A DNA stretch of 64,000 nt from NCBI GenBank assembly GCA_002839095.1, contig PGXL01000009.1, positions 2,444-66,443 of the forward strand, read 5' to 3'. The stretch comes from Tenericutes bacterium HGW-Tenericutes-2. GTDB taxonomy: Bacteria > Bacillota_I > Bacilli_A > Acholeplasmatales > Acholeplasmataceae. A model generated the notes under the pieces. It was not told where the DNA came from and ran no database searches. It saw only the letters and a list, made by a program, of their open reading frames with translations. Shown here piece after piece: positions 9,823 to 60,441 of this stretch (the first letter of the stretch is position 1; every line of letters begins with the position of its first letter). A program made the position numbers and the translations under genes.

Positions 9823-9898
9823 GGCCCGTTGGAGAAACGGTTAACTCACTTGCCTTTCACGCAAGCATTCACGGGTTCGAATCCCGTACGGGTCACCA
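9823..9898 (+). tRNA. tRNA-Glu (anticodon TTC)
   Basis: Near-identical to Bacillus tRNA-Glu (GGCCCGTTGG...CCTTTCAC...GGGTTCGAATCCCGTACGGGTCACCA); anticodon loop cttTTCac. Confidence 0.9.
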
Positions 9899-9961
9899 AA
9901 ATGTTTTTAATGAAAAGCGCACAATAATGATATGAGTTTTTAGATGATTAACTCAAGAGTA

Positions 9962-10038
9962 GTACCCATAGCTCAACTGGATAGAGCGTTTGACTACGGA
10001 TCAAAAGGTTGGGGGTTCAAGTCCTCTTGGGTACGCCA
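9962..10038 (+). tRNA. tRNA-Arg (anticodon ACG)
   Basis: Acceptor gtaccca/tgggtac, D-arm gctcaactggatagagc, anticodon loop ctACGga, CCA encoded. Confidence 0.9.
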
Positions 10039-10043
10039 TATGT

Positions 10044-10120
10044 CGGGAAGTAGCTTAGCTTGGTAGAGCGCCTGGTTTGGGACCAGGAGGTCGCAGGTTC
10101 AAATCCTGTCTTCCCGACCA
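10044..10120 (+). tRNA. tRNA-Pro (anticodon TGG)
   Basis: Acceptor cgggaag/cttcccg, anticodon stem cctgg/ccagg with loop ttTGGga, T-loop ttcaaat, CCA encoded. Confidence 0.9.
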
Positions 10121-10130
10121 TTATTAACTT

Positions 10131-10204
<74 letters not shown>

Positions 10205-35526: not shown

Positions 35527-35600
35527 GGCCTCATAGCCAAGTGGTAAGGCAAGGCACTGCAACTGCCTGATCATCGGTTCAAATCCGTTTGAGGCCTCCA
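35527..35600 (+). tRNA. tRNA-Cys (anticodon GCA)
   Basis: Acceptor ggcctca/tgaggcc, anticodon stem aggca/tgcct loop ctGCAac, T-loop ttcaaat, CCA encoded. Confidence 0.9.
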
Positions 35601-39737: not shown

Positions 39738-39763
39738 AAGGAGCGAGTGCTCCTTAATTTTTT
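39738..39763. terminator. Bidirectional terminator (corA / PucR-like gene)
   Basis: aaggagc-gagt-gctcctt + T-run. Confidence 0.8.
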
Positions 39764-41313: not shown

Positions 41314-41438
41314 TTGCTCACCTCTACCATATTTTAGCAATCATTGTTACAAATTACAAGAATCAAGCGTTTTTATTGTAAAGCATTGCTAATTACAAAC
41401 ACTATACCATTTTTGTATAATTAAACTACATTGAGGAG

Positions 41439-42971: not shown

Positions 42972-43614
42972 GGCAAAGCCATTTGTATTTGACTTTGACC
43001 TCGAAAAAACTGCACTTGTCATTATTGACATGCAAAGAGACTTCTGTGAGTTTGGCGGTTTTGGTGAAGCGTTGGGTAATGATATTACGCCAACAAAATC
43101 AATTATACCAACTGTTAGAAAAGTGCTAGATGCAGCAAGAGCTGCTCATATGTTTATCATTCATACAAGAGAAGGGCATCGACCGGATTTAAGCGATGTA
43201 CCTAAAGCGAAAAAGGTAAGATTTTCATCTATAGGTGAAATTGGACCTATGGGTAGAATATTAATTCGTGGTGAATATGGCCATGATATAGTAGATGAAT
43301 TAAAGCCACTTCCTGGAGAAGTTGTCATTGATAAGCCTGGTAAGGGTGCATTCTATGAAACGGATCTTCATTCAATTTTACAAAATAAAAATATTGAATC
43401 ACTCATCTTTTGTGGTGTAACTACACATGTTTGTGTACACACAACAATTCGTGAAGCAAACGATAGAGGATATGAATGTTTAATGCTAGAGGATGGAACA
43501 GCTGCATTTGATCCTAAAGATCAAGAAGCTGCAATTCGAATGATTAACCAACAAGGTGGTATCTTTGGTTGGACAACAACAAGTGAAGAACTACTTAAAA
43601 AACTAAAAAAATAA
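42952..43614 (+). CDS. Isochorismatase-family cysteine hydrolase (amidohydrolase)
   Basis: Isochorismatase fold signatures: ALVIIDMQRDF (Asp), K at ~+80, catalytic Cys in FCGVTTHVCV; TTG start 42952 with AAAGGAG SD 8 nt upstream (ORF track 42880 is an extension overlapping permease). Confidence 0.8.
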   Translation: MRKYQVEAKPFVFDFDLEKTALVIIDMQRDFCEFGGFGEALGNDITPTKSIIPTVRKVLDAARAAHMFIIHTREGHRPDLSDVPKAKKVRFSSIGEIGPMGRILIRGEYGHDIVDELKPLPGEVVIDKPGKGAFYETDLHSILQNKNIESLIFCGVTTHVCVHTTIREANDRGYECLMLEDGTAAFDPKDQEAAIRMINQQGGIFGWTTTSEELLKKLKK

Positions 43615-43626
43615 AGGAGAATACGA

Positions 43627-45153
43627 ATGTTTAAGAAGCTTGAAGGTGGCACACGTTGGTGGGTCAAGGGAGATTTAAATGGATTTTTCGGTTTGTTTTC
43701 TAATGTTTTAACTAATTTTTTAGCAGCAGTAGGACTTTTAATTATTATCGGTATGCCAAGTGATATCGTATTTGGTAATGTCGTACCAGGCACTGCAGTT
43801 GCAGTAGGTCTTGGTGGTATCATTTTAGCTTTTCAAGCTAAGCAATTATCTGTCAAGATGAAGAGAGATGACGTGACTGCAATGCCATATGGCCTATCAG
43901 TACCTCATTACTTCGTCGTTGCATTTGGTGTTATTGCAGTTGTTTATGCAACTACCAATGACTGGCAAACAGCTTGGGCTGCAGGTATCGTATGGAACTT
44001 TATTCAGGGTATTATTATGGGTATAGGTTCATTTGTTGGTATCTATATTAAGAAATATATTCCTCGTGCAGCAATGCTTGGTGCACTTGCGGGGTTAGCA
44101 ATTACATATATTGCTATGAATCCAGCAGGTCAAGTATTCACTACTCCATATATTGGAATGACATCACTTGCTATTATCTTTGTCGGTTGGTTTGCACTTA
44201 AGAAAATGCCATTTGGTATTCCTGCTGGTGCATTCGCGATTATGATTGGTACAATTCTTGCTTGGGCAACTGGTTATATGGATCCACAAGCAGTTGGTGA
44301 CTCATTCTCTAACGTAGGATTTAGCCTACCTGGCTTGGCACTAAATGTTTTTGGTCGGGGCTTTGCTCAAATTGCTCCATTCCTTCCAGCTGCAATTCCT
44401 TTAGCTATCTATGATTTCCTTGAAAGCTTAGATAATCTAGAATCTGCAGAAGTTTCTGGTGAAAAATATAACGTTCCAAAGGCTATGATGGTTCCTGCAG
44501 GATTAACGATTCTTGGTTCATTCTTAGGTTCTCCATTCCCAACAATCATCTACATTGGTCATCCTGGATGGAAATCAACAGGTGCACGTATAGGTTATTC
44601 ATGGGTAACTGGTGTCGCAGTCTTGTTACTTGCATTCCTAGGATTTATGAATTTTATCCTAGCTATTATTCCTCTGGTTGCATTACTACCAATTCTAATG
44701 TATATCGGTATGGTTATTACAACTCAAGCATTTGCTACCACTAAGAAAGAGCATATGCCAGCAGTAGCATTATCCTTTATTCCACTGATTGCAGGTTTTG
44801 TAACACTACAGGTTAAAAACGCGATTAACGCTACTGGTGGTACTCTAGACTATCAAGCCTTAGCGAACACAGGTATCCCACTACTTGGTTGGGAAAGACT
44901 TGCTGCAGGTGATATTTTAGTAGGGATGATGATCGCTACCATTGCAATCTTCATCATCGATAAGAAATTCTTAATCTCTGCAATATATGCTTTAATTACT
45001 GCAGCTCTTGCATTCTTTGGATTTATACATGCACCAGCAATTGGATTTGCTACAGGCTGGGAAGTTGCATTAGGTTATGTTGCAATGGCTCTTGTTCTAG
45101 TTGCGATGAATTTCTATCGCAGTCATGAAAATGTAGTCAGTGAGACAGAGTAG
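43627..45153 (+). CDS. NCS2/AzgA-like nucleobase-type permease, paralog 2
   Basis: AAAGGAG SD; same architecture and ~45% identity by eye to 41439 gene (GDLNGFFGLFSNVLTN, IGHPGWKSTGARIGYS). Confidence 0.65.
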   Translation: MFKKLEGGTRWWVKGDLNGFFGLFSNVLTNFLAAVGLLIIIGMPSDIVFGNVVPGTAVAVGLGGIILAFQAKQLSVKMKRDDVTAMPYGLSVPHYFVVAFGVIAVVYATTNDWQTAWAAGIVWNFIQGIIMGIGSFVGIYIKKYIPRAAMLGALAGLAITYIAMNPAGQVFTTPYIGMTSLAIIFVGWFALKKMPFGIPAGAFAIMIGTILAWATGYMDPQAVGDSFSNVGFSLPGLALNVFGRGFAQIAPFLPAAIPLAIYDFLESLDNLESAEVSGEKYNVPKAMMVPAGLTILGSFLGSPFPTIIYIGHPGWKSTGARIGYSWVTGVAVLLLAFLGFMNFILAIIPLVALLPILMYIGMVITTQAFATTKKEHMPAVALSFIPLIAGFVTLQVKNAINATGGTLDYQALANTGIPLLGWERLAAGDILVGMMIATIAIFIIDKKFLISAIYALITAALAFFGFIHAPAIGFATGWEVALGYVAMALVLVAMNFYRSHENVVSETE

Positions 45154-45931
45154 TATAACTTCAATCGATTGCAATGTTTTAGATGAAATCAAGATGAATG
45201 GTGCAACTATACAAGGTGTCTATAGGAGTACCATTCATCTTTCCTTAAGGGACTCTATCGTAACATTGGGAAATCGAGTGACTTCAGGAAAACATCATAT
45301 TACAATTTTTGAAGATTTAGACTTTGGGATATATGATTTAACTCCTGGAAAGAAAATAGTTATTGATCAGGATAAAATGCTTATTGGTGATCTTGAATTT
45401 GAAATCAATAAAGAAACAGTAAAGAGCTTTGAACCCTATAGCAAGATATATAAGATCAATACAGGAGTTATCAATGTGCTGAGAAAGCTAAAAAAAATGC
45501 TTAATGAAGGGCACAATCAAAATCTATTCTCTTATAACAAAAATGATGCATTACTCAAATATCAATTTGAAAAAATTGATGTCTTTTTGAACAGTCCAGG
45601 ATTGCCGAGTTCATTATCTATACTCGGTTTAGGTATGGGTTTAACTCCTTTAGGAGATGATATTCTTACAGGATTTATATTAGGGCTAAATTCTGTAGGT
45701 AAATCTTTACCTTGGATTCCCGCACTAATTAAGGAAGCATCTAAAAAAACGAGCAAACTTTCTGCTCAAAACTTAAAGGATACATATGAAAGATATTATC
45801 CTCAGGTCTTTATTGATTTGCTTGATGGATTGTTTCTTGATTATGATGTAGAAAAAGCAAAAACTATATTAAATTTAGGTGCAACTAGCGGAGCTGGAAT
45901 TCTCACCGGATTTATTTATGGACTCATGTAG
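45140..45931 (+). CDS. DUF2877 protein (YlbF/AllH-like, putative oxamate carbamoyltransferase subunit); start uncertain (GTG 45140 or ATG 45194)
   Basis: Size (~260 aa) and position adjacent to fdrA-like and DUF1116 genes as in E. coli fdrA-ylbE-ylbF-ybcF. Confidence 0.55.
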   Translation: MRQSSITSIDCNVLDEIKMNGATIQGVYRSTIHLSLRDSIVTLGNRVTSGKHHITIFEDLDFGIYDLTPGKKIVIDQDKMLIGDLEFEINKETVKSFEPYSKIYKINTGVINVLRKLKKMLNEGHNQNLFSYNKNDALLKYQFEKIDVFLNSPGLPSSLSILGLGMGLTPLGDDILTGFILGLNSVGKSLPWIPALIKEASKKTSKLSAQNLKDTYERYYPQVFIDLLDGLFLDYDVEKAKTILNLGATSGAGILTGFIYGLM

Positions 45932-45941
45932 GAGCGATGAT

Positions 45942-47477
45942 ATGAAAAATTACAAAATATTAAAAAACAGTTATTATGATTCTGTTACCTTAATGAGTAC
46001 AACAGTAGCACTCAAAAAGGAATTCAATTTTAAAGAGCTTGTGATGTTTATGGGAACTGACATGAATAAGGACATGATTAAGTCAGTTGGTTTGTTCCAT
46101 GAAGAATTATCTTCAGCTGAACCCAATGACTTGATGCTTTCTGTAGAAATGTCAGAAGAAAACTCAAATTGGGTTGAAGAAATACTTTCTAGATTGTCAG
46201 CTAAAAAATCAACAGCTAAGGAATCTGATAAGATATATAAAACAATCAATCAAGCCATTGATGATTTAAACCCTAATATCGCTGTTATCAGTGTTCCAGG
46301 TATTTATGCAGCAAATGAAGCCTACAAGGCATTGGAAAAAAATTTGCATGTCATGCTTTTTTCAGATAATGTTAGTGTAGAAGATGAAATTGAACTCAAA
46401 GAGATAGGGATTAGGAAGAATTTACTTGTTATGGGACCTGATTGTGGAACTGCTATAATCAATGGAAAAGGTTTATGCTTCGCAAATCAAATCCGAAGAG
46501 GAAGTATTGGACTAGTTGCTGCAAGCGGAACAGGTCTACAAGAGGTTAGTGTTATTATCGACAAATTTGGAGGAGGAATCACTCAGGCTATTGGAGTTGG
46601 TGGTAGAGATCTATCAGAACAAGTCGGTGGACGGATGATGTTGATGGGTATCGATGCATTAGAACAAGATGAACTAACAAAGGTTATTGTTTTAATCTCT
46701 AAGCCTCCTCATCAAACTGTGCTAGATAAAATTCTAGCAAAGCTCAAATCGATAAAGAAACCTGTTGTACTATGTCTTTTAGATGCAAAGCTAGATGAGA
46801 AAATTAAAAACGTGTATTTCGTTTCGACATTAACTGAAGCATCTATTCAAGCATTAAAGCTGATAGGATTTGATACACCTGATTTACTTCAAGTCGATCA
46901 AGAGATGAAAGGCTTGATTCAAAAACATCAAAAGAAATTTAGTCCTTCACAAACCAAGGTGAAGGGGTTATTTTGTGGTGGTACATTAACAGCGGAGTCA
47001 CTCAGCATACTAAGACCTATCCTAAAGTTAATTAAAAGTAATGTTGCAAAAAAGGATTATGAAAAGATGGAAAACCCACTCATATCTAACGGTAATAATT
47101 TGGTTGATCTAGGTGATGATATCTTTACACAAGGTAAACCACATCCAATGATTGAACCTACAATTCGATTAGAGCGTATTTTAGAGGAAGCCAATAATTC
47201 TGAAACTGCAGTATTATTACTTGATTTTGAGCTTGGCATTGGCTCACATGATGATCCAGTTGGCGTAACGTTAGATACACTTGTTGAAGCGCAAAACATA
47301 GCAAAGAACAATGGCAGACATTTGTCTATCGTTTCTTATGTTTGTGGAACTGATAAGGATCATCAAGGATTACAAAATTCAGAAAATAGATTAAAGGAGA
47401 TTGGTGTGATTGTTGCAAAAACGAATGCACATGCTGCAATCATCGCTGGTGAACTATTAAAAGAGGTGAAAAAATGA
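45942..47477 (+). CDS. fdrA: FdrA-like (AllF-like) CoA-binding/succinyl-CoA-synthetase-fold protein
   Basis: TAGGAGCG SD; N-terminus KNSYYDSVTLM resembles FdrA (..FQDSVSLM..); CoA-binding and ligase-CoA-like regions; 511 aa. Confidence 0.7.
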   Translation: MKNYKILKNSYYDSVTLMSTTVALKKEFNFKELVMFMGTDMNKDMIKSVGLFHEELSSAEPNDLMLSVEMSEENSNWVEEILSRLSAKKSTAKESDKIYKTINQAIDDLNPNIAVISVPGIYAANEAYKALEKNLHVMLFSDNVSVEDEIELKEIGIRKNLLVMGPDCGTAIINGKGLCFANQIRRGSIGLVAASGTGLQEVSVIIDKFGGGITQAIGVGGRDLSEQVGGRMMLMGIDALEQDELTKVIVLISKPPHQTVLDKILAKLKSIKKPVVLCLLDAKLDEKIKNVYFVSTLTEASIQALKLIGFDTPDLLQVDQEMKGLIQKHQKKFSPSQTKVKGLFCGGTLTAESLSILRPILKLIKSNVAKKDYEKMENPLISNGNNLVDLGDDIFTQGKPHPMIEPTIRLERILEEANNSETAVLLLDFELGIGSHDDPVGVTLDTLVEAQNIAKNNGRHLSIVSYVCGTDKDHQGLQNSENRLKEIGVIVAKTNAHAAIIAGELLKEVKK

Positions 47478-48895
47478 GCATCAACAAGCTTTTTAGTGAA
47501 GAACTTAAAGTTGTGAATATTGGTTCACCTAGTTTTAAGAATGATTATGAAAAACAAGAAATCGAGTATATTCATTTGAATTGGGCTCCACCTGCATCAG
47601 GGAACTTACAAACATTAAATCAACTGAGTCAAATTAGACCGTATATGGATAAAATTCATAAAGCCAATGAACAAGCTGTCCAAAAAATAAAAGCAGCAGA
47701 AGCTAGGCTCATAGCTGTCAAAAAAGCATATGATGTGATTCCAAATATGAGTAAAAATACAATTTTACATGCTGGACCACCAATCGAATTCAAAAGAATG
47801 GCAGGTCCAATGCGGGGTGCAATTATTGGTGCATTGATTTATGAGGGATTAGCAAAAAACGAAAAAGAAGCGATTAAGCTTGCTGAGTCTGGTGATATAG
47901 AATTTGATAGTGCTCATCATCATGATGCTGTTGGCCCAATGGCTGGTATTATTTCAGCATCCATGCCAGTTCATGTGCTATATAACATTATCGATAAAAA
48001 TTATAGCTATTGCACAATCAATGAAGGATTAGGCAAGGTGTTAAGATATGGAGCAAACAGCGAAGATGTTATTAAACGCTTGAAGTGGATTGAGCATACA
48101 TTTCAGCCTGTAATGAATGAGGCGTTAATTCTTTCAGGTGGTATTGATGTTAAAAGCATCATTACACAGGCATTACATATGGGTGATGAATGTCACAACA
48201 GAAATAAGGCATCCTCAGCACTATTTTTAAGAGAAATAGCCACACATGTTCTATCTACACAATTTACCGATCAAGAGAAAAAGGAAGTCATTGAGTTTAT
48301 TAAGAATAATGAGCATTACTTTCTAAATCTATCTATGCCTTATTGTAAGCTTGCACTGGATTCCGCAAGAAACATTAAATATTCTACCGTGGTCATCGCA
48401 ATGAGTAGAAATGGTGTTGATTTCGGAATCCAGCTTGCACATAGCAATACATGGTACAAGGCTCCAGCAAATTATGTAAAAGGGTTAATGTTTCCAGGAT
48501 TTAATGAAGATGATGCTGCTCCAGATATTGGAGATAGTGCAATCACTGAAACCTGTGGTATTGGTGGATTTGCTATGGGTGGAGCACCAGCGATTGTCCA
48601 GTTTGTAGGTGGTGTTGTCAAACAAGCATTTGATTACTCGAAGGAGATGCATGAAATAACAGCAGGTAGACATCAAGTATTTACCCTGCCACCACTTGAT
48701 TTTATGCCAACTGCTGTTGGTATCGAAATGACTAAGGTACTAGAGACTGGTATTTTACCAATCATTAATACTGGAATGGCTCATAAGGATGCTGGAGTAG
48801 GTCAAGTAGGTGCTGGTCTTGTTCATCCACCAATGGCTTGTTTTGAGAAGGCTTTGAAAGGATTTTTAGAAGAATTAAAGGAGGATAACAAATGA
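47474..48895 (+). CDS. DUF1116 protein (YlbE/AllG-like)
   Basis: AAAGAGGTG SD; ATGA overlap with fdrA; size 473 aa and gene order match fdrA-ylbE arrangement. Confidence 0.6.
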   Translation: MSINKLFSEELKVVNIGSPSFKNDYEKQEIEYIHLNWAPPASGNLQTLNQLSQIRPYMDKIHKANEQAVQKIKAAEARLIAVKKAYDVIPNMSKNTILHAGPPIEFKRMAGPMRGAIIGALIYEGLAKNEKEAIKLAESGDIEFDSAHHHDAVGPMAGIISASMPVHVLYNIIDKNYSYCTINEGLGKVLRYGANSEDVIKRLKWIEHTFQPVMNEALILSGGIDVKSIITQALHMGDECHNRNKASSALFLREIATHVLSTQFTDQEKKEVIEFIKNNEHYFLNLSMPYCKLALDSARNIKYSTVVIAMSRNGVDFGIQLAHSNTWYKAPANYVKGLMFPGFNEDDAAPDIGDSAITETCGIGGFAMGGAPAIVQFVGGVVKQAFDYSKEMHEITAGRHQVFTLPPLDFMPTAVGIEMTKVLETGILPIINTGMAHKDAGVGQVGAGLVHPPMACFEKALKGFLEELKEDNK

Positions 48896-49818
48896 AAATT
48901 TTAGTTGCACTAGGTGGTAACGCTCTTGGTGATACTCCAGAAGAACAAAAAGAACTCGTTAAGCATGCAGCTGATAGCGTTGCTGATTTGGTAGAACAGG
49001 GACATAAGGTAGTAGTTGTACATGGCAATGGACCTCAGGTTGGCTTAATTCAGAGTGCATTTGAAATAGCAAATGAAGTGAAACCCAATATGCCTTTGAT
49101 GCCTTTGCCTGAATGTGGAGCAATGAGCCAAGGATATATAGGTTATCATCTTCAAAATGCGATTTACAATTCTTTACTAAATAGAAACATTCATAAAGAT
49201 GTAGTCACTGTTGTCACACAAACAGTTGTAGATCCAAATGATCAAGCATTTAAAAACCCTTCTAAACCAATTGGAAAGTTTTATACTAAAGAAGAATCAG
49301 AAAAAATGGTAAAGCAATACAATATTCCAATGGTTGATGATTCAGGAAGAGGGTATAGACTTGTTGTACCAAGCCCAATGCCAATCGATATTATCGAAAA
49401 AAACGTTATTAAGGAGCTACTAGAAAATGATCATATTGTAATCGCATCTGGTGGTGGTGGAATACCTGTAATCAAAAAAGATACTTTAATGGGTGTTGCT
49501 GCGGTTATTGATAAGGATTTTAGTAGTGCAAAACTAGCTGAGTTGATTAAGGCAGATGTTTTTATCATACTCACAGCAGTAAAAAGAGTTTCAATTAACT
49601 TTAGGAAGCCTAATGAACTTGAATTTTCTAAATTATCAGTTAAGGAAGCTAAGCATTATATCGATATCAATATGTTTGGCAAGGGTAGCATGGAGCCAAA
49701 AATAGTCGCAGCTGTATCTTTTGTTGAAGCAAACAAGAACGGTCAAGCCATTATTGCTAGCCTAGAAGACGCTGCTCTTGCTGTAAAAGGAAAAGCAGGA
49801 ACAATAATCTATTCATAA
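48892..49818 (+). CDS. Carbamate kinase
   Basis: AAGGAGG SD; N-terminal MKILVALGGNAL, VVHGNGPQVG, C-terminal GGGGIPV - canonical carbamate kinase/amino-acid kinase family. Confidence 0.9.
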   Translation: MKILVALGGNALGDTPEEQKELVKHAADSVADLVEQGHKVVVVHGNGPQVGLIQSAFEIANEVKPNMPLMPLPECGAMSQGYIGYHLQNAIYNSLLNRNIHKDVVTVVTQTVVDPNDQAFKNPSKPIGKFYTKEESEKMVKQYNIPMVDDSGRGYRLVVPSPMPIDIIEKNVIKELLENDHIVIASGGGGIPVIKKDTLMGVAAVIDKDFSSAKLAELIKADVFIILTAVKRVSINFRKPNELEFSKLSVKEAKHYIDINMFGKGSMEPKIVAAVSFVEANKNGQAIIASLEDAALAVKGKAGTIIYS

Positions 49819-52729: not shown

Positions 52730-53245
52730 ATGAATGCACATTCACAGATTACTAGTGAAAAGCTTGCTCTTTTTTACTTGCAATTAGAAAAGAACAAAGT
52801 ATTACCTGGACCATTGATGCCGACACTACATGATGCTCAGCATATTTTTGGTTATATACCATTATCAATTCAAAAAATTATTTCAAAAGAACTTGGCGAA
52901 AGTATTGCTAAGATCAATGGAGTTGTTACCTTTTATGGTAACTTCTCAGTAACACCTAAAGGTAAAAAAACGATTGGTGTTTGTCTTGGAACTGCCTGCT
53001 ATGTAAGAGGTTCTAAGAATATTATGGACACCATCGAAGATGATTTAAAAATTAAATCTGGCGAGACAACAAAGGATGGAGAGATTACTCTAACTGCAAC
53101 ACGCTGTATAGGCGCATGTGGACTAGCTCCAGTTTTTTCCGTTGGTGATCATATTTATGGGAATTCAAACGTTTCTAAAGCCAAGCAAGTCTTAAAGGAA
53201 ATGAGAGAAGCAGCTGAAAATAAGGTAAAAGCCGATGAAGCTTAG
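52730..53245 (+). CDS. hydC: NuoE-like [2Fe-2S] thioredoxin-fold subunit (HydC of HydABC-type hydrogenase)
   Basis: AAAGGAG SD; Cys pattern C..C...C(x35)C in GVCLGTACYVRG ... RCIGACGLAP. Confidence 0.85.
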   Translation: MNAHSQITSEKLALFYLQLEKNKVLPGPLMPTLHDAQHIFGYIPLSIQKIISKELGESIAKINGVVTFYGNFSVTPKGKKTIGVCLGTACYVRGSKNIMDTIEDDLKIKSGETTKDGEITLTATRCIGACGLAPVFSVGDHIYGNSNVSKAKQVLKEMREAAENKVKADEA

Positions 53246-53618
53246 TGAAATCATTAAAAAGTATAATTTCAAGGTCTATACACCTGAAATATTACATGAA
53301 ATGGATATTAATTATGCATTTTGCTCTGATTTAATGAGTGATGCATTAATCATTCTAAATTCTGTTACAGACGAAAGAATACTTGCACAAAGTATGCTGA
53401 TTACTGGTCTAACGACCAATCAATCGATTCGAACTGCTGAAATGCTAGATGTGAATGTAGTTTTACTTGTTAGAGGAAAAATACCATCACTCAAAGTGGT
53501 TGACTTAGCAATTGAATCTAACATTTTATTACTTTCGACAGAACAAACCATGTTTAACATGAGTGGTTTGTTATATGGTGATGGAATTAAAGGAATTTAT
53601 TACAATCAGCAATGGTAG
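53235..53618 (+). CDS. DRTGG domain protein
   Basis: 127 aa; DRTGG-like core (MLITGLTT.. / DVNVVLLVRGKIPS) as in small hydrogenase-operon proteins. Confidence 0.55.
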   Translation: MKLSEIIKKYNFKVYTPEILHEMDINYAFCSDLMSDALIILNSVTDERILAQSMLITGLTTNQSIRTAEMLDVNVVLLVRGKIPSLKVVDLAIESNILLLSTEQTMFNMSGLLYGDGIKGIYYNQQW

Positions 53619-54046
53619 CTAAAGAATATCAAATTATCGCTAAAAATTATGAGTTCGCTGGTCGAGCATCTAGTGATATAAAAAAAACATTAAAAAGATT
53701 AGAAATCGATAGAAATCTAATGAAACGCGTATGTTCAGCATCCTATGAAGCTGAAATTAATGTCGTCATTCATTCCTTTGGTGGATTTGCAGTTTTTCAA
53801 ATGGATGAATCCAAAATTGTTTTAGACTTCATCGATGATGGTCCAGGAATTCAAAACATTGATCTTGCGATGACTGAAGGCTATTCAACAGCAACTGAAC
53901 TAGACCACTCTAATGGCTTTGGTGCAGGTATGGGTTTACCTAACATCAAACGCATTGCAGATGAGATGGATCTTCGATCTGATCATTATGGAACACATCT
54001 CAAGATTACATTCTATCTTGGAGGTGACAAAAATGCTAGTCAGTGA
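53612..54046 (+). CDS. Histidine-kinase-like ATPase, anti-sigma-factor (RsbW/SpoIIAB)-type Ser/Thr kinase fold
   Basis: HATPase_c N, G1 (DDGPGI) and G2 (GFGAGMGL) boxes; 144 aa; ATGGTAG overlap with upstream gene. Confidence 0.7.
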   Translation: MVAKEYQIIAKNYEFAGRASSDIKKTLKRLEIDRNLMKRVCSASYEAEINVVIHSFGGFAVFQMDESKIVLDFIDDGPGIQNIDLAMTEGYSTATELDHSNGFGAGMGLPNIKRIADEMDLRSDHYGTHLKITFYLGGDKNASQ

Positions 54047-54365
54047 TTTAATCAATAGTTCATATGAACTGCTAACGAATCAAGATACACTATCGAATAC
54101 AGTTCAAGGAATATATCAAACTGATCTTTTAAGTGCAGCAATCAAAAGTGCGAAACCAAATGATGCATTAATCACGTTGATTTCACATGTAAATACAATA
54201 GCTTTGGCAATGATGATTGACCTTTCGTTGATCATCATTGCTGAACATAGATCAGTTTCAATAGAAATGATTGATAAAGCGAATGAAGAGGGTATTTGCA
54301 TTCTTCGAACGCATTTGAAATCTCATGAAGTCGTTATTGACTTATTTAAAAGAGGTCTCCTATGA
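54033..54365 (+). CDS. DRTGG domain protein (second copy)
   Basis: GGAGGTG SD; 110 aa; related to 53235 gene (ALITLISHVNTIALAMMIDLSLIIIAE). Confidence 0.55.
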   Translation: MLVSDLINSSYELLTNQDTLSNTVQGIYQTDLLSAAIKSAKPNDALITLISHVNTIALAMMIDLSLIIIAEHRSVSIEMIDKANEEGICILRTHLKSHEVVIDLFKRGLL

Positions 54366-55063
54366 TTTATTATTATGACCTACATATACATTCTGTATTA
54401 TCTCCAGATGCTGATACTTTAATGACACCAAACAATATTTTTAATATGGCAAACCTAAAGGGTTTAAATATTATATCAGTCACAGACCATAACTCATTCA
54501 AGCAGCTTCCTGTTTTATATGAAATATCGAAAAGCTATGATATGCTTTTCATTCCTGGTGTTGAAATTTCCGTTAAGGAAGGCTTTCATCTTTTATGTTA
54601 TTTCAAACATATTGAAGATGCGCTTTCCTTCGATGCATTGTTAGATACATGTAATCATAAACAAGGATATGATGAAAAGACTTTAGGAAGATCAGAGATT
54701 ACCGACATTCATGATGCTGTCATTGATCTCTATCCCTATGATTTAACTCTTTCTCTAACTCTTTCTTTGAAACAATTGATTCTAATTCTAAAGGATTATG
54801 ATCATATCTTAGTTTATGCACATGTGGATAGAAAAAAACATAGTGGCCTAGCATATATTCATGAATATCCATTGGATGCGATTGAACTTACTAAAAATGC
54901 AAATAATGATTTCATAATACAAAATCAACTCACAAATCAAATCATTGTATATAATTCTGATGCACATCAGATTACAGATATTTCTGAAAGAGAAAAAATG
55001 AATCAAATGGAATTAGAAAGCTTGACCATGGAGTCATTTTTTAGGTTCTTTAAAAATGGATGA
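54362..55063 (+). CDS. PHP (polymerase/histidinol-phosphatase) domain metal-dependent phosphoesterase
   Basis: N-terminal YYYDLHIHSVLSPDA... and SVTDHNSF motifs; AAGAGG SD. Confidence 0.75.
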   Translation: MIYYYDLHIHSVLSPDADTLMTPNNIFNMANLKGLNIISVTDHNSFKQLPVLYEISKSYDMLFIPGVEISVKEGFHLLCYFKHIEDALSFDALLDTCNHKQGYDEKTLGRSEITDIHDAVIDLYPYDLTLSLTLSLKQLILILKDYDHILVYAHVDRKKHSGLAYIHEYPLDAIELTKNANNDFIIQNQLTNQIIVYNSDAHQITDISEREKMNQMELESLTMESFFRFFKNG

Positions 55064-55625
55064 TTTAGCAACCTATTTATTAGATATCATTCAAAATTCT
55101 ATCACTGCAAAGTCATCTATCATTCATCTTTCTATAGATATTCAAGATGACATGAAAATATCTATTAAAGATAATGGATTGGGTATGTCAGAAGACATAT
55201 TAAAAAAAGCGACCTCTCCCTTCTTTACAACAAGAACGACAAGGACAGTAGGTCTAGGATTATCATTTTTAAAAATGATATCAGAACAAACAGAAGGATC
55301 TTTTCAATTAGAATCTATAGAAAATAAAGGAACAAACCTTTATATGACACTTAATTATCTACATCCAGATATGCCTCCATTGGGAGATCTAGGAGAATTG
55401 ATATATACATTATCCATTCATCAGGATTTAATAGAGTTCATATTTGATTTTAAATATAAAAATCATTCATATCATTATCAAGCAAGTGAAATGAAGGAAA
55501 TGTTTAAAGAACTTTTAAGTACATATTCAATAATGAAAGCTTTAATAGAACTGATTAATCAAGAAATACATATAGATGAGGTGAACCATGAAATCTTTAG
55601 AAGATTTAAAGAAGTTAAGAGATGA
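55056..55625 (+). CDS. Stand-alone histidine-kinase-like ATPase (HATPase_c) domain protein
   Basis: N box (IIQNSITA), G1 DNGLGM, G2 GLGLSF; no DHp or receiver domain. Confidence 0.65.
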   Translation: MDDLATYLLDIIQNSITAKSSIIHLSIDIQDDMKISIKDNGLGMSEDILKKATSPFFTTRTTRTVGLGLSFLKMISEQTEGSFQLESIENKGTNLYMTLNYLHPDMPPLGDLGELIYTLSIHQDLIEFIFDFKYKNHSYHYQASEMKEMFKELLSTYSIMKALIELINQEIHIDEVNHEIFRRFKEVKR

Positions 55626-55956
55626 AGCGTTAAAAAAGATGACAATGCGCTATACAAAAGATGGATATAGAATCCAAATTGGAATGGGTACATGTGGGAT
55701 TGCATCAGGTGCAAAACCAATTCTTTCTGCTTTTTTAGAAGAAATTGAATCACATGAACTTTCAAATGTTACAGTCACACAAGTTGGTTGTATGGGCGAA
55801 TGTGCCTATGAACCAATGGCAGAGGTCATTGATATGAATGGTCAGTCCTACGTATATTGTGGGGTAACTATTCCTATGGTTAAGGAAATCATTGAGAAGC
55901 ATATTATCAATAATGAGCCTCAAACAAGATACCTTTTAACATCAAGAAAGGGATAG
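55588..55956 (+). CDS. Thioredoxin-like [2Fe-2S] ferredoxin (HydD-like small subunit)
   Basis: GATGAGGTG SD; Cys motifs GTCGIASGA ... GCMGECAYEP. Confidence 0.75.
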   Translation: MKSLEDLKKLRDEALKKMTMRYTKDGYRIQIGMGTCGIASGAKPILSAFLEEIESHELSNVTVTQVGCMGECAYEPMAEVIDMNGQSYVYCGVTIPMVKEIIEKHIINNEPQTRYLLTSRKG

Positions 55957-55965
55957 GGCGAAATC

Positions 55966-57777
55966 ATGTTAGAAAGAATACAAGTATTAATATGTGGTGG
56001 GACAGGATGCTTAAGCTCAAATGCTAAAGAAATAAAAAAAGCTTTTGAAGAACACCTAGAAGTATTAGAAATGACAGATGAGGTTGGACTAGTTTTGACT
56101 GGTTGTTTTGGCCTATGCGAAAAAGGACCTGTAGTTGTAGTTTATCCTGATGAAACCTTCTACACACATGTCACAGTTGATGATGTAAAGGAAATATGTG
56201 AGGAGCATCTACTAAAAGGTAGACCGTTAGAAAGATTGATGGTAAAAAATCCTTTAGATAAATCAAAGATTAAAAATATGGGTCAACTCAAATTCTATGC
56301 AAAACAAAAGAGAATTGCATTAAGAAATTGTGGAAATATAAACCCAATGGAAATTGAAGAATATATCGCAAAGGATGGATACCTAGCACTAGGTACAATC
56401 TTAAAGGAAAAAACACCACAGGAAGTTATTGATCAAATGATTCATTCAGGTCTTCGTGGTCGTGGTGGTGGAGGATTCTCCACAGGTAAAAAATGGCAGT
56501 TCGCTAAAAACTCAGAATCAGATCAAAAATATGTGATTTGTAATGCTGATGAAGGAGATCCAGGTGCATTTATGGACCGCGCAGTTTTAGAGGGCGATCC
56601 ACATTCTGTATTAGAAGCAATGGCTATCTGCGGTTATGCCATTGGTGCAAACCAGGGATATATCTATGTACGTGCAGAATATCCAGTCGCAGTAGAAAGA
56701 CTTGGAATTGCAATTAAACAAGCAAAGGAATACGGACTATTAGGTAAAAACCTTTTTGGTTCTAATTTTAGCTTTGATATTGATATTCGTTTAGGAGCAG
56801 GAGCATTCGTATGTGGTGAAGAAACAGCATTAATCGCATCCATTGAAGGATATAGAGGAATGCCAAGACTTAAACCTCCATTTCCAGCTGTTCGAGGACT
56901 ATGGGGCAAGCCTACCAATGTCAACAATGTGGAAACACTTGCTAACATCCCTGTTATCTTTTTAAAAGGTGCTGATTGGTTCAAATCCATAGGTACTGAA
57001 AAATCAAGTGGAACCAAAGTGTTTGCTCTTGGTGGAAAAATTAATAACACAGGATTAGTAGAGGTTCCAATGGGCACTACCATCAGAGAAATAGTTTTTG
57101 ACATCGGTGGTGGTATTCCAAATAAAAGAAAGTTTAAAGCGATTCAAACAGGTGGACCATCTGGAGGATGTATTACTGCAGAATTTCTAGATACCCCAAT
57201 TGATTTTGAAAACTTAACTGCCTTAGGTTCTATGATGGGATCAGGTGGAATGATTGTAATGGATGAAGACAATTGCATGGTCGATGTCGCAAGATTTTAT
57301 CTTGACTTCACCGTCGATGAATCCTGCGGTAAATGTACACCATGTCGTGAAGGTACTAAGCAGATGAGAGATATTCTAGACCGTATTTGTGAAGGCCTAG
57401 GAACCTTAAAGGATTTAGATGAGCTTGAACGCTTAGCACACATGATTCAAGAAACATCATTATGTGGATTGGGGCAAACTGCACCAAATCCAGTTTTATC
57501 TACGCTAAAGCATTTTAAGGATGAATATATTGCACATGTGGTTGATAAAACATGTCCAGCTGGCGTTTGCCGTGAATTGACCAATTTCTTTATTGAAGAT
57601 AATTGTGTTGGTTGTGGTAAATGTGCTAAATACTGCCCAGTTAACGCAATTACAGGTTGGCAAAGAGACATACACAAGATTGATTTAGATCTTTGCATCC
57701 GCTGTGGAGCATGTAAAAAAGCATGTCCAGTTAATGCAATAACAAGCAAACCAATGCATGAGGAGGCATCTAGATGA
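55966..57777 (+). CDS. hydB: NuoF-like NADH-binding flavoprotein subunit of bifurcating [FeFe]-hydrogenase (HydB), with N-terminal 2Fe-2S and C-terminal 2x[4Fe-4S] domains
   Basis: FMN site GRGGGGFSTGKKW, NADH site, SLBB, 4Fe-4S CGKCTPCREG, C-terminal CVGCGKCAKYCP and CIRCGACKKACP. Confidence 0.9.
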   Translation: MLERIQVLICGGTGCLSSNAKEIKKAFEEHLEVLEMTDEVGLVLTGCFGLCEKGPVVVVYPDETFYTHVTVDDVKEICEEHLLKGRPLERLMVKNPLDKSKIKNMGQLKFYAKQKRIALRNCGNINPMEIEEYIAKDGYLALGTILKEKTPQEVIDQMIHSGLRGRGGGGFSTGKKWQFAKNSESDQKYVICNADEGDPGAFMDRAVLEGDPHSVLEAMAICGYAIGANQGYIYVRAEYPVAVERLGIAIKQAKEYGLLGKNLFGSNFSFDIDIRLGAGAFVCGEETALIASIEGYRGMPRLKPPFPAVRGLWGKPTNVNNVETLANIPVIFLKGADWFKSIGTEKSSGTKVFALGGKINNTGLVEVPMGTTIREIVFDIGGGIPNKRKFKAIQTGGPSGGCITAEFLDTPIDFENLTALGSMMGSGGMIVMDEDNCMVDVARFYLDFTVDESCGKCTPCREGTKQMRDILDRICEGLGTLKDLDELERLAHMIQETSLCGLGQTAPNPVLSTLKHFKDEYIAHVVDKTCPAGVCRELTNFFIEDNCVGCGKCAKYCPVNAITGWQRDIHKIDLDLCIRCGACKKACPVNAITSKPMHEEASR

Positions 57778-59531
57778 TTAAAGATATCCATATTCAAATT
57801 AATGGTCAAAATATAACAGCAAAATCCAATCAGACTATTTTAAAATCAGCAGAGGAAAATGGAATCTACATTCCACGTCTTTGTTACTTTGAAGGTATAC
57901 ATGAAGAAGGTAACTGTCGTGTTTGTTCTGTGAAGATAAATGATCAAAAAAACTTAAAGCCTGCTTGTAAAACAATGGTTGAAGAAGGCATGAAAATCGT
58001 TACAGATGATTTAGATGTATACCAAACTGTAACCATGAATTTAGAGCTATTATCTCATAAGCATCATTTTGAATGTTTTAACTGTTCAAGAGAAGATAAT
58101 TGCGAATTTTTAGATTTACTTAGAAGATACTCAGTTGAAAATGAATTAACTCATCTTTATGGAGCACATGATGCACAACGATATTTTTCAGATTCCTCAG
58201 GAGTTTTAGAACTAGATAGCAGTAAATGTATCTTATGCGGAAGATGTGTTTCAGCATGTGAAAAATATACTGGATTAGGTATTTTAAATTATAACGAACG
58301 TGGATCAGAAACATACGTAGGACCAGCACTTTTTCATAATCTTGAGGATGCTGGATGTATTTATTGTGGCAAGTGTATTCAAGCATGTCCAACCGGTGCA
58401 CTCAGTGAAAAGGATGACATCAGACTTGTTGAAATGGCACTTCGTGATCCGAAGAAAAAAATTATTGTTCAAGTTGCACCTTCAATTCGTGCAACGCTAG
58501 GTGAAGAATTCGGTTATCCAGTAGGAACCAATGTTGAAGGCCAAATGTTTGCAGCACTTCACGCACTTGGAATTCATGAGATTATGGATACCAATTTTAC
58601 TGCGGATTTAACCATTTTAGAAGAAGGAACTGAGTTTATTAATCGACTTGAAAATAATGGTCCTTTTCCAATGTTTACCTCCTGTTCACCAGGTTGGGTG
58701 AATTATTTAGAGCTATATCATCCAGAATATATACCAAATCTTTCTAGCTGTAAATCACCACAACAAATGGCTGGAGCTTTAATTAAGACCTATTATGCGA
58801 AAGAGCTCAATATGGATCCAAAGGATATTGTATCTCTTTCCATCATGCCATGTATAGCAAAAAAGGCAGAAGCAAAAAGAGAAGATATGGGTAGAGATGG
58901 GTATAGAGACGTAGATATCGTGTTGACAACTAGAGAGATTGCAAGACTGATTAAGCGCAGAAAAGTGGATTTTAGAAATTTAAAACCAATCAAGCCTTAT
59001 GGAACACTTGCATCCTATACTGGTGCTGCTAATATATTTGGTGCAACAGGTGGAGTGATGGAAGCAGCACTTAGAACTGTAACTGAAATACTTGAAGATC
59101 ATGAAACTCCTATTGATTTCAAGGAAGTTCGTGGAAATCAAGATATTAAAGAAGCAACCTATATGATTAAAGGAACACCAATTCATATTGCAGTCGTTCA
59201 TGGTGGTACCGCGATAAAAACATTTATGGAAGACATGATTAAAAATAACAAGAAATATCATTTCGTTGAAATCATGGGTTGCACAGGTGGTTGTATCAAT
59301 GGTGGTGGTCAACCGATTGTTCCAGCAAAGATTTATGAAAAGGTTGATATTCGTTCCATTAGAGCAAGCGTATTATATGATATCGATTCTAAATCTGATT
59401 TGAGAAAATCCCATAACAATCCGTTTGTTAAAAAATTATATGAAGATTTCCTAGGTCATCCAAACTCACATAAATCTCATGAATTGCTGCATACATCATA
59501 TAAGAAAAGAGAAATCTACAACAACATTTAG
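57774..59531 (+). CDS. hydA: [FeFe]-hydrogenase catalytic subunit (HydA, M3-type N-terminal arrangement) with variant L1 motif TSCSP
   Basis: N-terminal 2Fe-2S, His-ligated 4Fe-4S (HKHHFECFNCSREDNC), two 4Fe-4S, H-domain motifs FTSCSPGW (L1 variant), MPCIAKKAEA (L2), EIMGCTGGCINGGGQP (L3); ATGA overlap with hydB. Confidence 0.9.
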   Translation: MIKDIHIQINGQNITAKSNQTILKSAEENGIYIPRLCYFEGIHEEGNCRVCSVKINDQKNLKPACKTMVEEGMKIVTDDLDVYQTVTMNLELLSHKHHFECFNCSREDNCEFLDLLRRYSVENELTHLYGAHDAQRYFSDSSGVLELDSSKCILCGRCVSACEKYTGLGILNYNERGSETYVGPALFHNLEDAGCIYCGKCIQACPTGALSEKDDIRLVEMALRDPKKKIIVQVAPSIRATLGEEFGYPVGTNVEGQMFAALHALGIHEIMDTNFTADLTILEEGTEFINRLENNGPFPMFTSCSPGWVNYLELYHPEYIPNLSSCKSPQQMAGALIKTYYAKELNMDPKDIVSLSIMPCIAKKAEAKREDMGRDGYRDVDIVLTTREIARLIKRRKVDFRNLKPIKPYGTLASYTGAANIFGATGGVMEAALRTVTEILEDHETPIDFKEVRGNQDIKEATYMIKGTPIHIAVVHGGTAIKTFMEDMIKNNKKYHFVEIMGCTGGCINGGGQPIVPAKIYEKVDIRSIRASVLYDIDSKSDLRKSHNNPFVKKLYEDFLGHPNSHKSHELLHTSYKKREIYNNI

Positions 59532-59538
59532 GAGACTT

Positions 59539-60441
59539 ATGAAAAAAATATTACTCATCATTCTTTTATCTTTCATCCTATTTGGATGCAAGAAGGATGA
59601 TTCAATTACAATCATTGTTCCATATGGTAGTCCAAAGCTTGCTCAACTCTATCTAGAAAATTCTGATGATTATCAAGTGGATGTAGTCAATGGAGCAGAT
59701 CCATTAGTTGCAGCATTCGGTTCATCTTCACATGATGTTATTTTCGCACCAACCAATTTAGGTGCGAAAATGTATCAATCTAAGGATTCATATCAATTAC
59801 TTGCAACCATAGTTTGGGGTAATTATTACTTAGTTTCTAGTGAAGAGCAAGAATTTAATATTTCATCACTTGATGGAAAAAGAATTACTGTTTTTGGAAA
59901 GAATCAAACCTCAGACATTATTTTGACTTACCTTCTTCAAGAGCTAGATATAGAAGTAGAAATAACATATGTGGATTCAGTTAGCTCAGCAGCTCAGCTA
60001 TTTCTTTCTTCTCAAGAAAGTATTGTTTTGTTAGCTGAACCAGTTTATTCTAATGTCATGAGCCAGCTACCTCAAACAAAAACGATAGACATTCAAGAGC
60101 TTTATCAAAGTGTTACAGGTAAAGATTCATATCCCCAATCCGGAGTATTTATTAAGAGAAATTTGGAGCAATCCAAGATTTTAAAAATTCAAAATGATTT
60201 GATAGAATCTATTGAAAAAACGAATCAATATCCCTTGGATGCTGCACAACTTGCAGTAGAGCTTCAAATGGGATTAACTAGTGAAATTATAGCAAGTGCT
60301 ATTTTAAATAGTAATTTGCGGTATGTATCTGCTAAAAACTCAAAAGAGGATATAGTTTCTTATTTTGGGTTAATCCTAAGCATGAATCCAGCATTAATTG
60401 GTGGTCAGCTACCAAATGACTTATTTTACAATGGTGATTAG
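59539..60441 (+). CDS. ABC transporter substrate-binding lipoprotein (NMT1/SsuA-like, NitT/TauT family)
   Basis: AGGAGA SD; lipobox LFGC; periplasmic-binding fold type 2 features; no terminator after hydA. Confidence 0.65.
   Translation: MKKILLIILLSFILFGCKKDDSITIIVPYGSPKLAQLYLENSDDYQVDVVNGADPLVAAFGSSSHDVIFAPTNLGAKMYQSKDSYQLLATIVWGNYYLVSSEEQEFNISSLDGKRITVFGKNQTSDIILTYLLQELDIEVEITYVDSVSSAAQLFLSSQESIVLLAEPVYSNVMSQLPQTKTIDIQELYQSVTGKDSYPQSGVFIKRNLEQSKILKIQNDLIESIEKTNQYPLDAAQLAVELQMGLTSEIIASAILNSNLRYVSAKNSKEDIVSYFGLILSMNPALIGGQLPNDLFYNGD

Follow-up and report, generated by a model that had tools for sequence, protein, structure and literature searches.

A natural serine at the cubane ligand position of the L1 motif in a predicted HydABC-type [FeFe] hydrogenase of Acholeplasmataceae

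The [FeFe] hydrogenase catalytic subunit HydA (585 aa; hydA, 57774..59531, + strand), recognized from its ORF, its Pfam and NCBIfam families, and its PDB match in the window (the whole 64,000-nt stretch of DNA analysed), bears serine instead of the second cysteine of the L1 H-cluster motif. The Ser305 substitution is real, yet it is not new: it is conserved throughout a natural clade of considerable size, and an earlier publication describes it in the solved, fully active enzyme of Acetobacterium woodii. Very probably, HydA is the catalytic subunit of an A. woodii-type HydABC, an NADH/ferredoxin-dependent bifurcating/confurcating hydrogenase of a fermentative member of Acholeplasmataceae, in which Ser305 holds the cubane ligand position.

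The L1 motif and its serine codon

Within 58671-58700 of the window, the frame of the hydA ORF reads atg ttt acc tcc tgt tca cca ggt tgg, i.e., M-F-T-S-C-S-P-G-W. The L1 (P1) motif itself, T302-S-C304-S305-P-G-W308 (58677..58697, + strand), is invariant in 35/35 aligned homologs, and in phmmer matches this stretch runs without gaps against both ‘ftsCCpgw’ of CpI (4xdc/4xdd) and ‘itsCSpgw’ of A. woodii HydA1 (7q4v), the alignments to these two proteins being gapless along their entire length as well. According to the MAFFT alignment, the retained Cys304 (codon tgt, 58683..58685, + strand) corresponds to CpI C299 and A. woodii C300, the proton-relay cysteine, and Ser305 (codon tca, 58686..58688, + strand) corresponds to CpI C300, CrHydA1 C115, and A. 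woodii Ser301, the [4Fe-4S]H ligand position. In CpI, the first L1 cysteine, C299, is the proton-relay residue (PMC9563086; bioRxiv 10.1101/2023.06.23.541094), and the second, C300, is a cubane ligand (bioRxiv 10.1101/2023.06.23.541094). HydA therefore departs from the strict pattern TSCCPxW with both cysteines: it reads TSCSPGW, with the relay Cys304 kept and serine at the ligand position, and since all the other ligands are kept too, it has the features of a natural Ser-variant site. The first-pass annotation, which had read TSCSP within 58671-58700 (tgt tca at 58683-58688) and proposed that the ligand is replaced while the relay cysteine stays, was right in both the reading and the assignment of the two residues.

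The chance that Ser305 is a sequencing or assembly artefact, with the true codon at 58686-88 encoding Cys, is negligible. The identical 585-aa HydA is present on 11 contigs from at least five independently assembled samples, and the five loci of this protein that were fetched are 100% identical at the DNA level. All 36 genomic loci covering the site in different species, among them those of the cultured isolate Peloplasma aerotolerans and of the closed genome of Izemoplasma sp. B36, encode TSCSPGW; the Ser codon is TCA in 30 of them, TCT in five, and TCC in one, and the flanking codons likewise vary synonymously. TSCSP is also carried, with L2 and L3 intact, by 120/120 of the closest homologs of HydA (66-99% identity). 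Moreover, two substitutions separate TCA from either Cys codon, TGT or TGC, which is more than a single-base error could produce. An error as the source of Ser305 is thus rejected, being effectively refuted by the independent assemblies, the 36 other genomes, and the two-base distance. Canonical CC in close relatives, named beforehand as a sign of an artefact, was found neither in the 120 homologs nor in the 36 loci. As judged from these sequences, Ser305 is conserved under purifying selection over a large clade.

The remaining motifs of HydA and the hyd operon

HydA has a CpI-like M3 layout consisting of a 2Fe-2S cluster, a His-ligated 4Fe-4S cluster, two further 4Fe-4S clusters, the H-domain, and a small-subunit-like C-terminus; the N-terminal cluster set is that of a HydABC-type HydA. 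The corresponding Pfam domains are Fe_hyd_lg_C (PF02906, 1.9e-91), Fe_hyd_SSU, Fer2_4, NADH-G_4Fe-4S_3/Fe_hydrogense_Fe-S_bd, and Fer4. The score against NCBIfam TIGR02512 (494.2 bits, cutoff 405.95) places the protein among group A [FeFe] hydrogenases, and that against NF040763, the NADH-dependent [FeFe] hydrogenase of group A6, is only marginally above the threshold (765.3 bits, cutoff 765). The NF040763 name has been given by NCBI to several HydA homologs at 66-72% identity (e.g., P0049, P0053, P0066). In global fold, the AF2 model of HydA resembles CpI, 7q4w_A, and 8a6t_A (TM 0.82-0.84).

Both of the other H-cluster motifs are intact. L2, of the form MPCxxKxxE, is represented by MPCIAKKAE (residues 358-366; 58845..58871, + strand), where Cys360 aligns with the cubane ligand C355 of CpI and Lys363 with K358, E366 closing the motif. 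L3, of the form ExMxCxxGCxxGxGxP, reads EIMGCTGGCINGGGQP (E499 to P514; 59268..59315, + strand), its Cys503 being equivalent to the ligand C499 of CpI and Cys507 to the bridging C503. The proton pathway defined in CpI by C299, E279, S319, E282, and R286 is conserved throughout as C304, E284, S324, E287, and R291. The accessory-cluster ligands are present and invariant, including Cys 37/48/51/65, His97 with Cys 101/104/110, and, for the two ferredoxin-type 4Fe-4S clusters, Cys 152/155/158/162/195/198/201/205. With L2, L3, the relay cysteine, the proton pathway, the pocket, and the accessory ligands all preserved in its sequence, the gene is not decayed, and on this point Pfam, the alignment, and the 120/120 homologs uphold what the first-pass annotation had stated.

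The genes for the partner subunits lie upstream on the same strand. hydC (52730..53245, + strand) encodes a NuoE-like 2Fe-2S subunit of 171 aa (Pfam 2Fe-2S_thioredx, 7.5e-43), and hydB (55966..57777, + strand) a NuoF-like flavoprotein subunit of 603 aa, which in Pfam comprises an N-terminal 2Fe-2S thioredoxin-like domain, FMN/NADH and 4Fe-4S domains, and a C-terminal 2x[4Fe-4S] domain. Such a co-encoded pair is characteristic of HydABC (HydDB group A3 type). The best PDB matches are A. woodii HydA1 for HydA (7q4v_A, E 6.9e-169), A. woodii HydB for HydB (7q4v_B, E 6.5e-264), and A. woodii HydC for HydC (7q4v_C, E 5.1e-39), so that by sequence all three subunits are closest to the solved A. woodii complex among the PDB matches.

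Five accessory ORFs (53235..55625, + strand) are placed inside the operon. Family searches describe them as a 127-aa protein with no family, a 144-aa HATPase/anti-sigma-F-like protein, a weak DRTGG-like protein of about 110-150 aa, a 233-aa PHP protein, and a 189-aa HATPase. Their order is kept in Peloplasma aerotolerans (L011), and they are absent from Izemoplasma B36 (L031); they are probably regulatory and separate from the L1 finding. Between them and hydB lies a gene for a 122-aa thioredoxin-like 2Fe-2S ferredoxin (55588..55956, + strand; Pfam, NCBIfam), which is conserved in both of these bacteria. No HydE/F/G maturase genes were found within the 64,000-nt window, and such linkage is not required; scans for Rfam families, tRNAs, and promoters/terminators near the operon yielded nothing that bears on the L1 finding. 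In its available text, the paper describing Peloplasma lists group A1 and A3 hydrogenases and contains no H2 measurements.

Distribution of the serine and its predicted role

Serine occupies the ligand position in 14 of the 138 representatives of 50%-identity clusters (10%), and a figure of about 20% of putative hydrogenase sequences is quoted, after Winkler 2013, by Kertess 2017 (PMC5855289); hence the description of TSCCP as near-invariant in the first-pass annotation does not hold. Within the wall-less lineages Acholeplasmataceae and Izemoplasmatales, all HydA sequences sampled carry Ser here. A quick NJ tree, a method too crude for counting origins, has only Ser tips in the query clade (23 tips) and in that of A. 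woodii (three tips), with the remaining Ser representatives dispersed among Cys-type ones; a single monophyletic TSCSP clade is accordingly not demonstrated. Two degenerate sequences, P0123 (TSYSP) and P0170 (TSSSP), both without L2 and L3, are found near the query clade.

A neighbouring cysteine might have taken over the ligand role, as had been considered from the start, and this was rejected. The H-domain of HydA contains five cysteines in all (304, 326, 360, 503, and 507), and the only additional residue, Cys326 (SSCKSP), aligns to CpI A321, beside the relay serine and away from the cubane; it also occurs in 54% of the CC-type sequences of the sample. No Cys column specific to the Ser group, and thus no compensating cysteine, was found in the sampled H-domain alignment. 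Residues co-varying with Ser gave weak signals only, and no strong compensating signature was found in the sequence sample beyond the enrichment of Gly307 (88% vs. 34%, Fisher p 6e-5, phylogeny ignored).

What the serine may do is best seen from the electron-bifurcating HydABC of A. woodii (PDB 7Q4V, 7Q4W, 8A5E; Katsyv et al. 2023, PMC10021017). In its HydA1, Ser301Aw replaces the Cys cubane ligand (Cys299Tk), and the infrared H-cluster signatures and activities are similar to those of the all-Cys Thermoanaerobacter kivui enzyme (PMC10021017). The identical case has thus been published for a bifurcating enzyme, which takes away the special interest that the first-pass annotation saw in it. Likewise, the altered redox potential and catalytic bias that it predicted are unsupported so far, the properties recorded for A. 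woodii, infrared signature and activity, being normal. By homology with A. woodii, Ser305 would sit at the cubane ligand site, and the [4Fe-4S]H subcluster would be held by Ser305, Cys360, Cys503, and the bridging Cys507. Cys304 would keep its proton-relay role to the azadithiolate bridge via the intact E284/S324/E287/R291 pathway. The enzyme is expected, from the same comparison, to be active in both directions, with an H-cluster of ordinary spectroscopic properties, and, by analogy with the A. woodii and T. kivui HydABC, to couple H2 turnover to NAD(P)+ and ferredoxin. Physiologically, it would serve as an outlet for reduced ferredoxin and NADH, with H2 as the product.

Among the alternatives, a cubane held by three cysteines (Cys360, Cys503, and Cys507) survives best, although it is improbable. 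In such a site-differentiated [4Fe-4S]H, the fourth Fe would carry water or hydroxide and Ser305 would only donate or accept a hydrogen bond. The A. woodii reduced-state map was obtained at 3.4 A (Katsyv 2023, PMC10021017), a resolution at which Fe-O(Ser) cannot be separated from Fe-OH2...Ser, so the Fe-O(Ser) bond is modelled rather than resolved. Besides, the engineered variants C115S, C115D, and C115A of CrHydA1 lose most of the [4Fe-4S] cluster, take up no [2Fe], and are inactive (Kertess 2017, PMC5855289); C115S being devoid of stable cluster binding, serinate ligation is not guaranteed. On the other hand, both the model and the text of Katsyv 2023 give Ser301 as a ligand, and the FTIR spectra of the H-cluster are normal. 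The strictness of the serine, which none of the 120 homologs or 36 loci replaces by Ala, Gly, or Thr, argues for a specific role of the hydroxyl group. Furthermore, C115A is no worse than C115S in CrHydA1, so natural alanine would be expected were no ligand needed.

Still less probable is a shift of register, whereby Cys304 would become the cubane ligand and Ser305 or water the terminal proton relay, bringing HydA nearer to a relay-modified enzyme. The confidence of the AF2 model is somewhat lower in the L1 loop (mean pLDDT 68 for residues 301-310), which leaves some room for this idea, but the alignment is gapless on either side of the motif with both CpI and A. woodii, the A. woodii model puts Ser301 rather than Cys300 at the cluster, and the other residues of the proton pathway are those of standard enzymes. 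In four enzymes, activity falls 10- to 10,000-fold when the relay Cys is replaced by Ser (PMC9563086); A. woodii HydABC, by contrast, is described as having full activity.

That HydA is a non-catalytic, sensory, or decaying paralog whose serine marks a lost H-cluster is extremely unlikely, even given the degenerate sequences mentioned above and the Melainabacteria ACD20 TSCSPGW hydrogenases, which have also lost an L3 cysteine (PMC3787301): it is rejected since no PAS or sensor domain was found in HydA by Pfam, the functional residues are invariant across homologs, the hydC...hydB-hydA operon is complete, and the corresponding A. woodii enzyme has catalytic activity.

Returning to Ser305 as a cubane ligand, it may be asked whether the exchange is adaptive. 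It is conceivable, though rather unlikely, that Cys-to-Ser represents a tuning of HydABC that shifts the [4Fe-4S]H potential or the stability toward oxidants and is enabled by scaffold features missing from the algal enzyme, such as Gly at +2 (TSCSPGW). If true, this would reconcile the failure of engineered C115S with the working natural Ser enzymes. Serine is fixed both across the sampled Acholeplasmatales/Izemoplasmatales homologs and in the A. woodii lineage. The searchable literature yielded no redox titration, EPR, or electrochemistry on natural H-clusters of the Ser type. The natural tolerance of Ser as against the collapse of C115S, and the effect of Ser on the cubane potential, are questions already raised by published work and not newly by the window. 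The survey makes small additions, namely the fixation of Ser in Acholeplasmataceae/Izemoplasmatales, purifying selection, and the lack of a compensating cysteine.

Comparison with known hydrogenases

The closest known system, A. woodii HydA1, shares with HydA the TSCSPGW motif with Ser301Aw at the position of Ser305, the M3 architecture, a similar length (583 vs. 585 aa), conserved L2, L3, and proton pathway, and HydB and HydC partners that are likewise the best PDB matches. The differences are nevertheless appreciable. The H-domains are only about 52% identical, L3 contains MGCTGGC in HydA and MACPGGC in A. woodii, and the operon described here has five extra HATPase/PHP/DRTGG-like ORFs. The host belongs to Acholeplasmataceae (Mollicutes-like Bacilli) rather than to clostridial acetogens, and the direction of the reaction likely differs as well, with H2 produced from fermentation here and taken up for acetogenesis in A. 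woodii. Since A. woodii HydA1 is active and Ser occurs in about 10-20% of sequences, strict TSCCP is invalid as an exclusion criterion. Genome annotation should not make it a strict condition for calling an [FeFe] hydrogenase functional, as the sizeable TSCSP group includes a proven active bifurcating enzyme.

The HydABC enzymes of T. kivui (PDB 8A6T) and Thermotoga maritima (7P5H) have the same three-subunit bifurcating architecture and are strong PDB matches for HydA, HydB, and HydC. As the ligand residue in T. kivui HydA is Cys (Cys299Tk), Ser is not a requirement of bifurcation. CpI aligns collinearly with HydA over the full length (E 1e-160) and is similar in fold; the pocket and proton-pathway residues of the two proteins are identical except for C300 (Ser305) and the second-shell I268 (Thr273 in HydA). 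Unlike HydA, CpI is a monomeric, ferredoxin-dependent enzyme with canonical TSCCPGW and C300 on the cubane.

CrHydA1 C115S shares with HydA both the position (C115 corresponds to CpI C300) and the Cys-to-Ser chemistry, but it is engineered and not natural. The failure of the C115 variants indicates that Ser ligation is not trivially tolerated. Set against the activity of the natural TSCSP enzyme from A. woodii, it implies that the natural scaffold makes room for Ser by some means that is lacking in the algal one.

Finally, natural variation in L1 is also known from putative HydS enzymes (groups C/D), where it is the first, relay Cys that has disappeared (PMC9563086) and sensor domains, such as a C-terminal PAS domain, are present. 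HydA shows the reverse, as the first-pass annotation had noted: Cys304 stays and Ser stands in for the ligand Cys. A sensor domain is also lacking, so that the protein does not fit the HydS type. The TSCSPGW motif was noted in print for the trimeric confurcating-type hydrogenases of Melainabacteria ACD20 (Di Rienzi et al. 2013, PMC3787301); in these proteins, the L3 Cys is replaced by Ile and they may be inactive (PMC3787301), whereas L3 of HydA is intact.

The HydABC operon and its surroundings

The hydrogenase genes of the window belong to a nine-gene operon. It opens with hydC (52730-53245), which encodes the NuoE-like partner, followed by five small accessory ORFs (53235-55625), the gene of a 122-aa thioredoxin-like 2Fe-2S protein, and hydB (55966-57777, + strand), which directly adjoins the 585-aa ORF called as hydA (57774..59531, + strand). 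HydB, a NuoF-like flavoprotein, has a 2Fe-2S domain at its N-terminus and a 2x[4Fe-4S] domain at its C-terminus. The accessory ORFs encode a 127-aa protein without a family, a 144-aa HATPase/anti-sigma-F-like protein, a protein with weak DRTGG/HPr-kinase-N-like similarity, a 233-aa PHP-domain protein, and a 189-aa HATPase. Together they resemble a regulatory module appended to HydABC. The same gene order, accessory ORFs included, is found in Peloplasma aerotolerans, whereas the operon of Izemoplasma sp. B36 lacks all five and consists only of hydC, the 2Fe-2S gene, hydB, and hydA. Neither HydE/F/G maturase genes nor a second hydrogenase were found in the 64-kb window.

HydA bears the full H-domain (Fe_hyd_lg_C, 1.9e-91) together with a small-subunit-like C-terminus and N-terminal 2Fe-2S and ferredoxin-type 4Fe-4S Pfam domains. 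It scores 494 bits against TIGR02512 ([FeFe] hydrogenase group A; cutoff 406) and only just reaches NF040763, “NADH-dependent [FeFe] hydrogenase, group A6” (765.3 versus a cutoff of 765). In the PDB, HydA is matched best by chain A (E 6.9e-169), HydB by chain B (E 6.5e-264), and HydC by chain C (E 5.1e-39) of a single group of entries (7Q4V/7Q4W/8A5E) that show the Acetobacterium woodii electron-bifurcating HydABC (Katsyv et al. 2023, PMC10021017). The AlphaFold2 model of HydA (pTM 0.79) superimposes on CpI of Clostridium pasteurianum and on the HydA1 subunits of A. woodii and T. kivui with TM 0.82-0.84.

As mechanically called, the ORF at 59479-60441 shares 53 nt with the 3′ end of hydA; in public gene calls it begins at 59539 and encodes 300 aa, starting with a lipoprotein-like signal sequence MKKILLIILLSFILFGC. 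Since an ABC permease gene (BPD_transp_1) comes next, it probably encodes a substrate-binding lipoprotein. Elsewhere in the window, three cyclic-di-GMP-type signalling proteins lie inside 8 kb (5TM-LYT + GGDEF + HD-GYP, 11548-13563; GGDEF + EAL, 16730-18370; GGDEF alone, 18386-19534), which stands out in a reduced, Mollicutes-related genome. At 39754-49818, a PucR-family regulator (- strand) adjoins a + strand cluster comprising a weak xanthine/uracil-permease-like ORF, an isochorismatase-family gene, a 508-aa ORF without a family, AllH, an FdrA-like CoA-ligase, AllG, and a carbamate-kinase-like gene, resembling a purine/allantoin catabolic cluster of the oxamate carbamoyltransferase type. The window starts inside a 5S rRNA gene (partial, 1-98), followed by tRNA-Asn (within 1-217); a Glu, Arg, Pro, Gly tRNA cluster occupies 9823-10204, and tRNA-Cys 35527-35600.

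Serine at the ligand position of the L1 motif

The DNA at 58671-58697 (atg ttt acc tcc tgt tca cca ggt tgg) encodes M-F-T-S-C-S-P-G-W, with Cys304 at 58683-85 (tgt) and Ser305 at 58686-88 (tca), both on the + strand; the first-pass annotation, which had reported TSCSP instead of TSCCP here, gave coordinates and codons that are exact on re-reading. In a MAFFT alignment, Cys304 corresponds to CpI C299, Ser305 to C300, Cys360 to C355, Cys503 to C499, and Cys507 to C503. C299 is the proton-exchange cysteine, with sensory hydrogenases as the known exception (PMC9563086), and C300 coordinates the cubane (bioRxiv 10.1101/2023.06.23.541094), so the roles given to these residues in the first-pass annotation agree with the literature. 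That the ligand position is serine while the relay cysteine is retained, as had been proposed, is borne out by phmmer and MAFFT alignment to CpI. Katsyv et al. (PMC10021017) name Cys354Tk/Cys356Aw as the cysteine also binding the di-iron site; by alignment, Cys356Aw is the L2 cysteine (CpI C355), and the bridging cysteine of CpI/CrHydA1 (C503/C366) is Cys506Aw, equivalent to Cys507 here, so that the published naming is probably a numbering slip.

Taken together, the analysis makes it very probable that the window encodes a functional HydABC in which [4Fe-4S]H would be held by Ser305, Cys360, Cys503, and the bridging Cys507, with Cys304 relaying protons. Most plausibly, in a fermentative wall-less Acholeplasmataceae host, the enzyme would confurcate, producing H2 as it oxidises NADH and reduced ferredoxin. 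The description of Peloplasma, a cultured relative, mentions hydrogenases of groups A1 and A3 as well as an Rnf complex.

A cubane bound by three cysteines with water as the fourth ligand is unlikely, though it draws some support from the A. woodii reduced-state map, whose 3.4 Å resolution makes the Fe-O(Ser) bond a modelling decision rather than a resolved feature. The motif region aligns without gaps to CpI “pfpmftsCCpgw” in phmmer, and a register shift by which Cys304 ligates the cubane is a still slimmer prospect. The proton pathway (E284, S324, E287, R291) is conserved relative to CpI, as are all pocket residues checked (A235, P236, S237, K327, P329, Q330, M358, K363, F422, M501), while second-shell I268 of CpI is Thr273 in HydA and likewise in A. 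woodii; that HydA is a non-catalytic paralog is scarcely credible.

Conservation and frequency of the variant

The identical 585-aa HydA occurs on 11 contigs. At least five samples, each assembled independently, contributed them (Logan SRR3546449, SRR3546451, SRR3546455; JGI 3300038335, 3300038336). Among named genomes, the nearest is that of the MAG Acholeplasmataceae bacterium UBA2284 (protein identity 99%, DNA identity 95.7%). Canonical CC, which would have spoken for an assembly error, did not appear among close relatives: all 120 closest homologs (66-99% identity) from a 5.8-billion-protein collection have TSCSP with intact L2 and L3, those with source names being Acholeplasma, Acholeplasmataceae, Izemoplasmatales, Tenericutes, Bacilli, or Firmicutes/Bacillota. 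TSCSPGW is present in 36/36 genomic loci covering the site, among them those of the cultured P. aerotolerans M4Ah and of Ca. Izemoplasma sp. B36, whose genome is closed. The serine codon varies (TCA 30, TCT 5, TCC 1), as do adjacent codons synonymously, a sequence pattern indicating purifying selection on the serine. With hydA DNA also 100% identical in all five loci fetched, an artefactual codon is ruled out for practical purposes.

HydA was also scored against 1.84 billion cluster representatives. In the 138 surveyed representatives whose H-domain is complete, C-C-P occurs in 105, C-S-P in 14 (10%), and the relay-position variants SC, AC, WC, and QC in a handful. Nearly all representatives closest to HydA are Ser-type. 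The top-scoring representative of the whole survey, P0121 (4,122 aa), contains seven H-domain matches. Five of these copies are spaced exactly 444 residues apart and share ~99% identity; copies six and seven have diverged from the first (73% and 46% identity). Its L1 reads TSCCASW (Pro to Ala). Either this is a giant tandem polyprotein, or the gene model or the assembly is at fault. P0123 (TSYSPGW) and P0170 (TSSSPGW), close sisters of the query clade, are altered at both L1 positions and lack L2 and L3; they are probably non-catalytic HydA-like paralogs from the Ser-type lineage.

Comparison with known Ser- and Cys-type hydrogenases

The A. woodii HydA1 sequence in PDB reads “itsCSpgw”, and TSCSPGW has been printed for trimeric hydrogenases of Melainabacteria (Di Rienzi et al. 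2013). Given these cases and the survey, calling TSCCP near-invariant was an overstatement. A bifurcating enzyme with serine at the ligand position is already published; rarity and novelty find no support, nor does the altered catalytic bias expected from serine. HydA belongs to a known, published natural variant and is itself uncharacterised.

In the algal CrHydA1, Kertess et al. (2017, PMC5855289) replaced C115, at the equivalent position, by Ser, Asp, or Ala, and the variants became inactive and lost most of their cubane; natural Ser-type scaffolds must therefore differ in some enabling way. No cysteine column specific to the Ser group was found in the H-domain alignment, and Cys326 (SSCKSP), the only other H-domain cysteine of HydA, has a counterpart in 54% of sampled CC-type sequences. 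Among non-redundant representatives, co-variation is strongest for Gly at +2 (TSCSPGW; 88% versus 34%, Fisher p 6e-5, a raw value uncorrected for multiple tests and phylogeny). In a quick neighbour-joining tree, the query and A. woodii clades are each pure-Ser, and the remaining Ser representatives are mixed among Cys ones. Finally, the HydABC of T. kivui has cysteine where HydA of the window has Ser305, so serine is not required for bifurcation.
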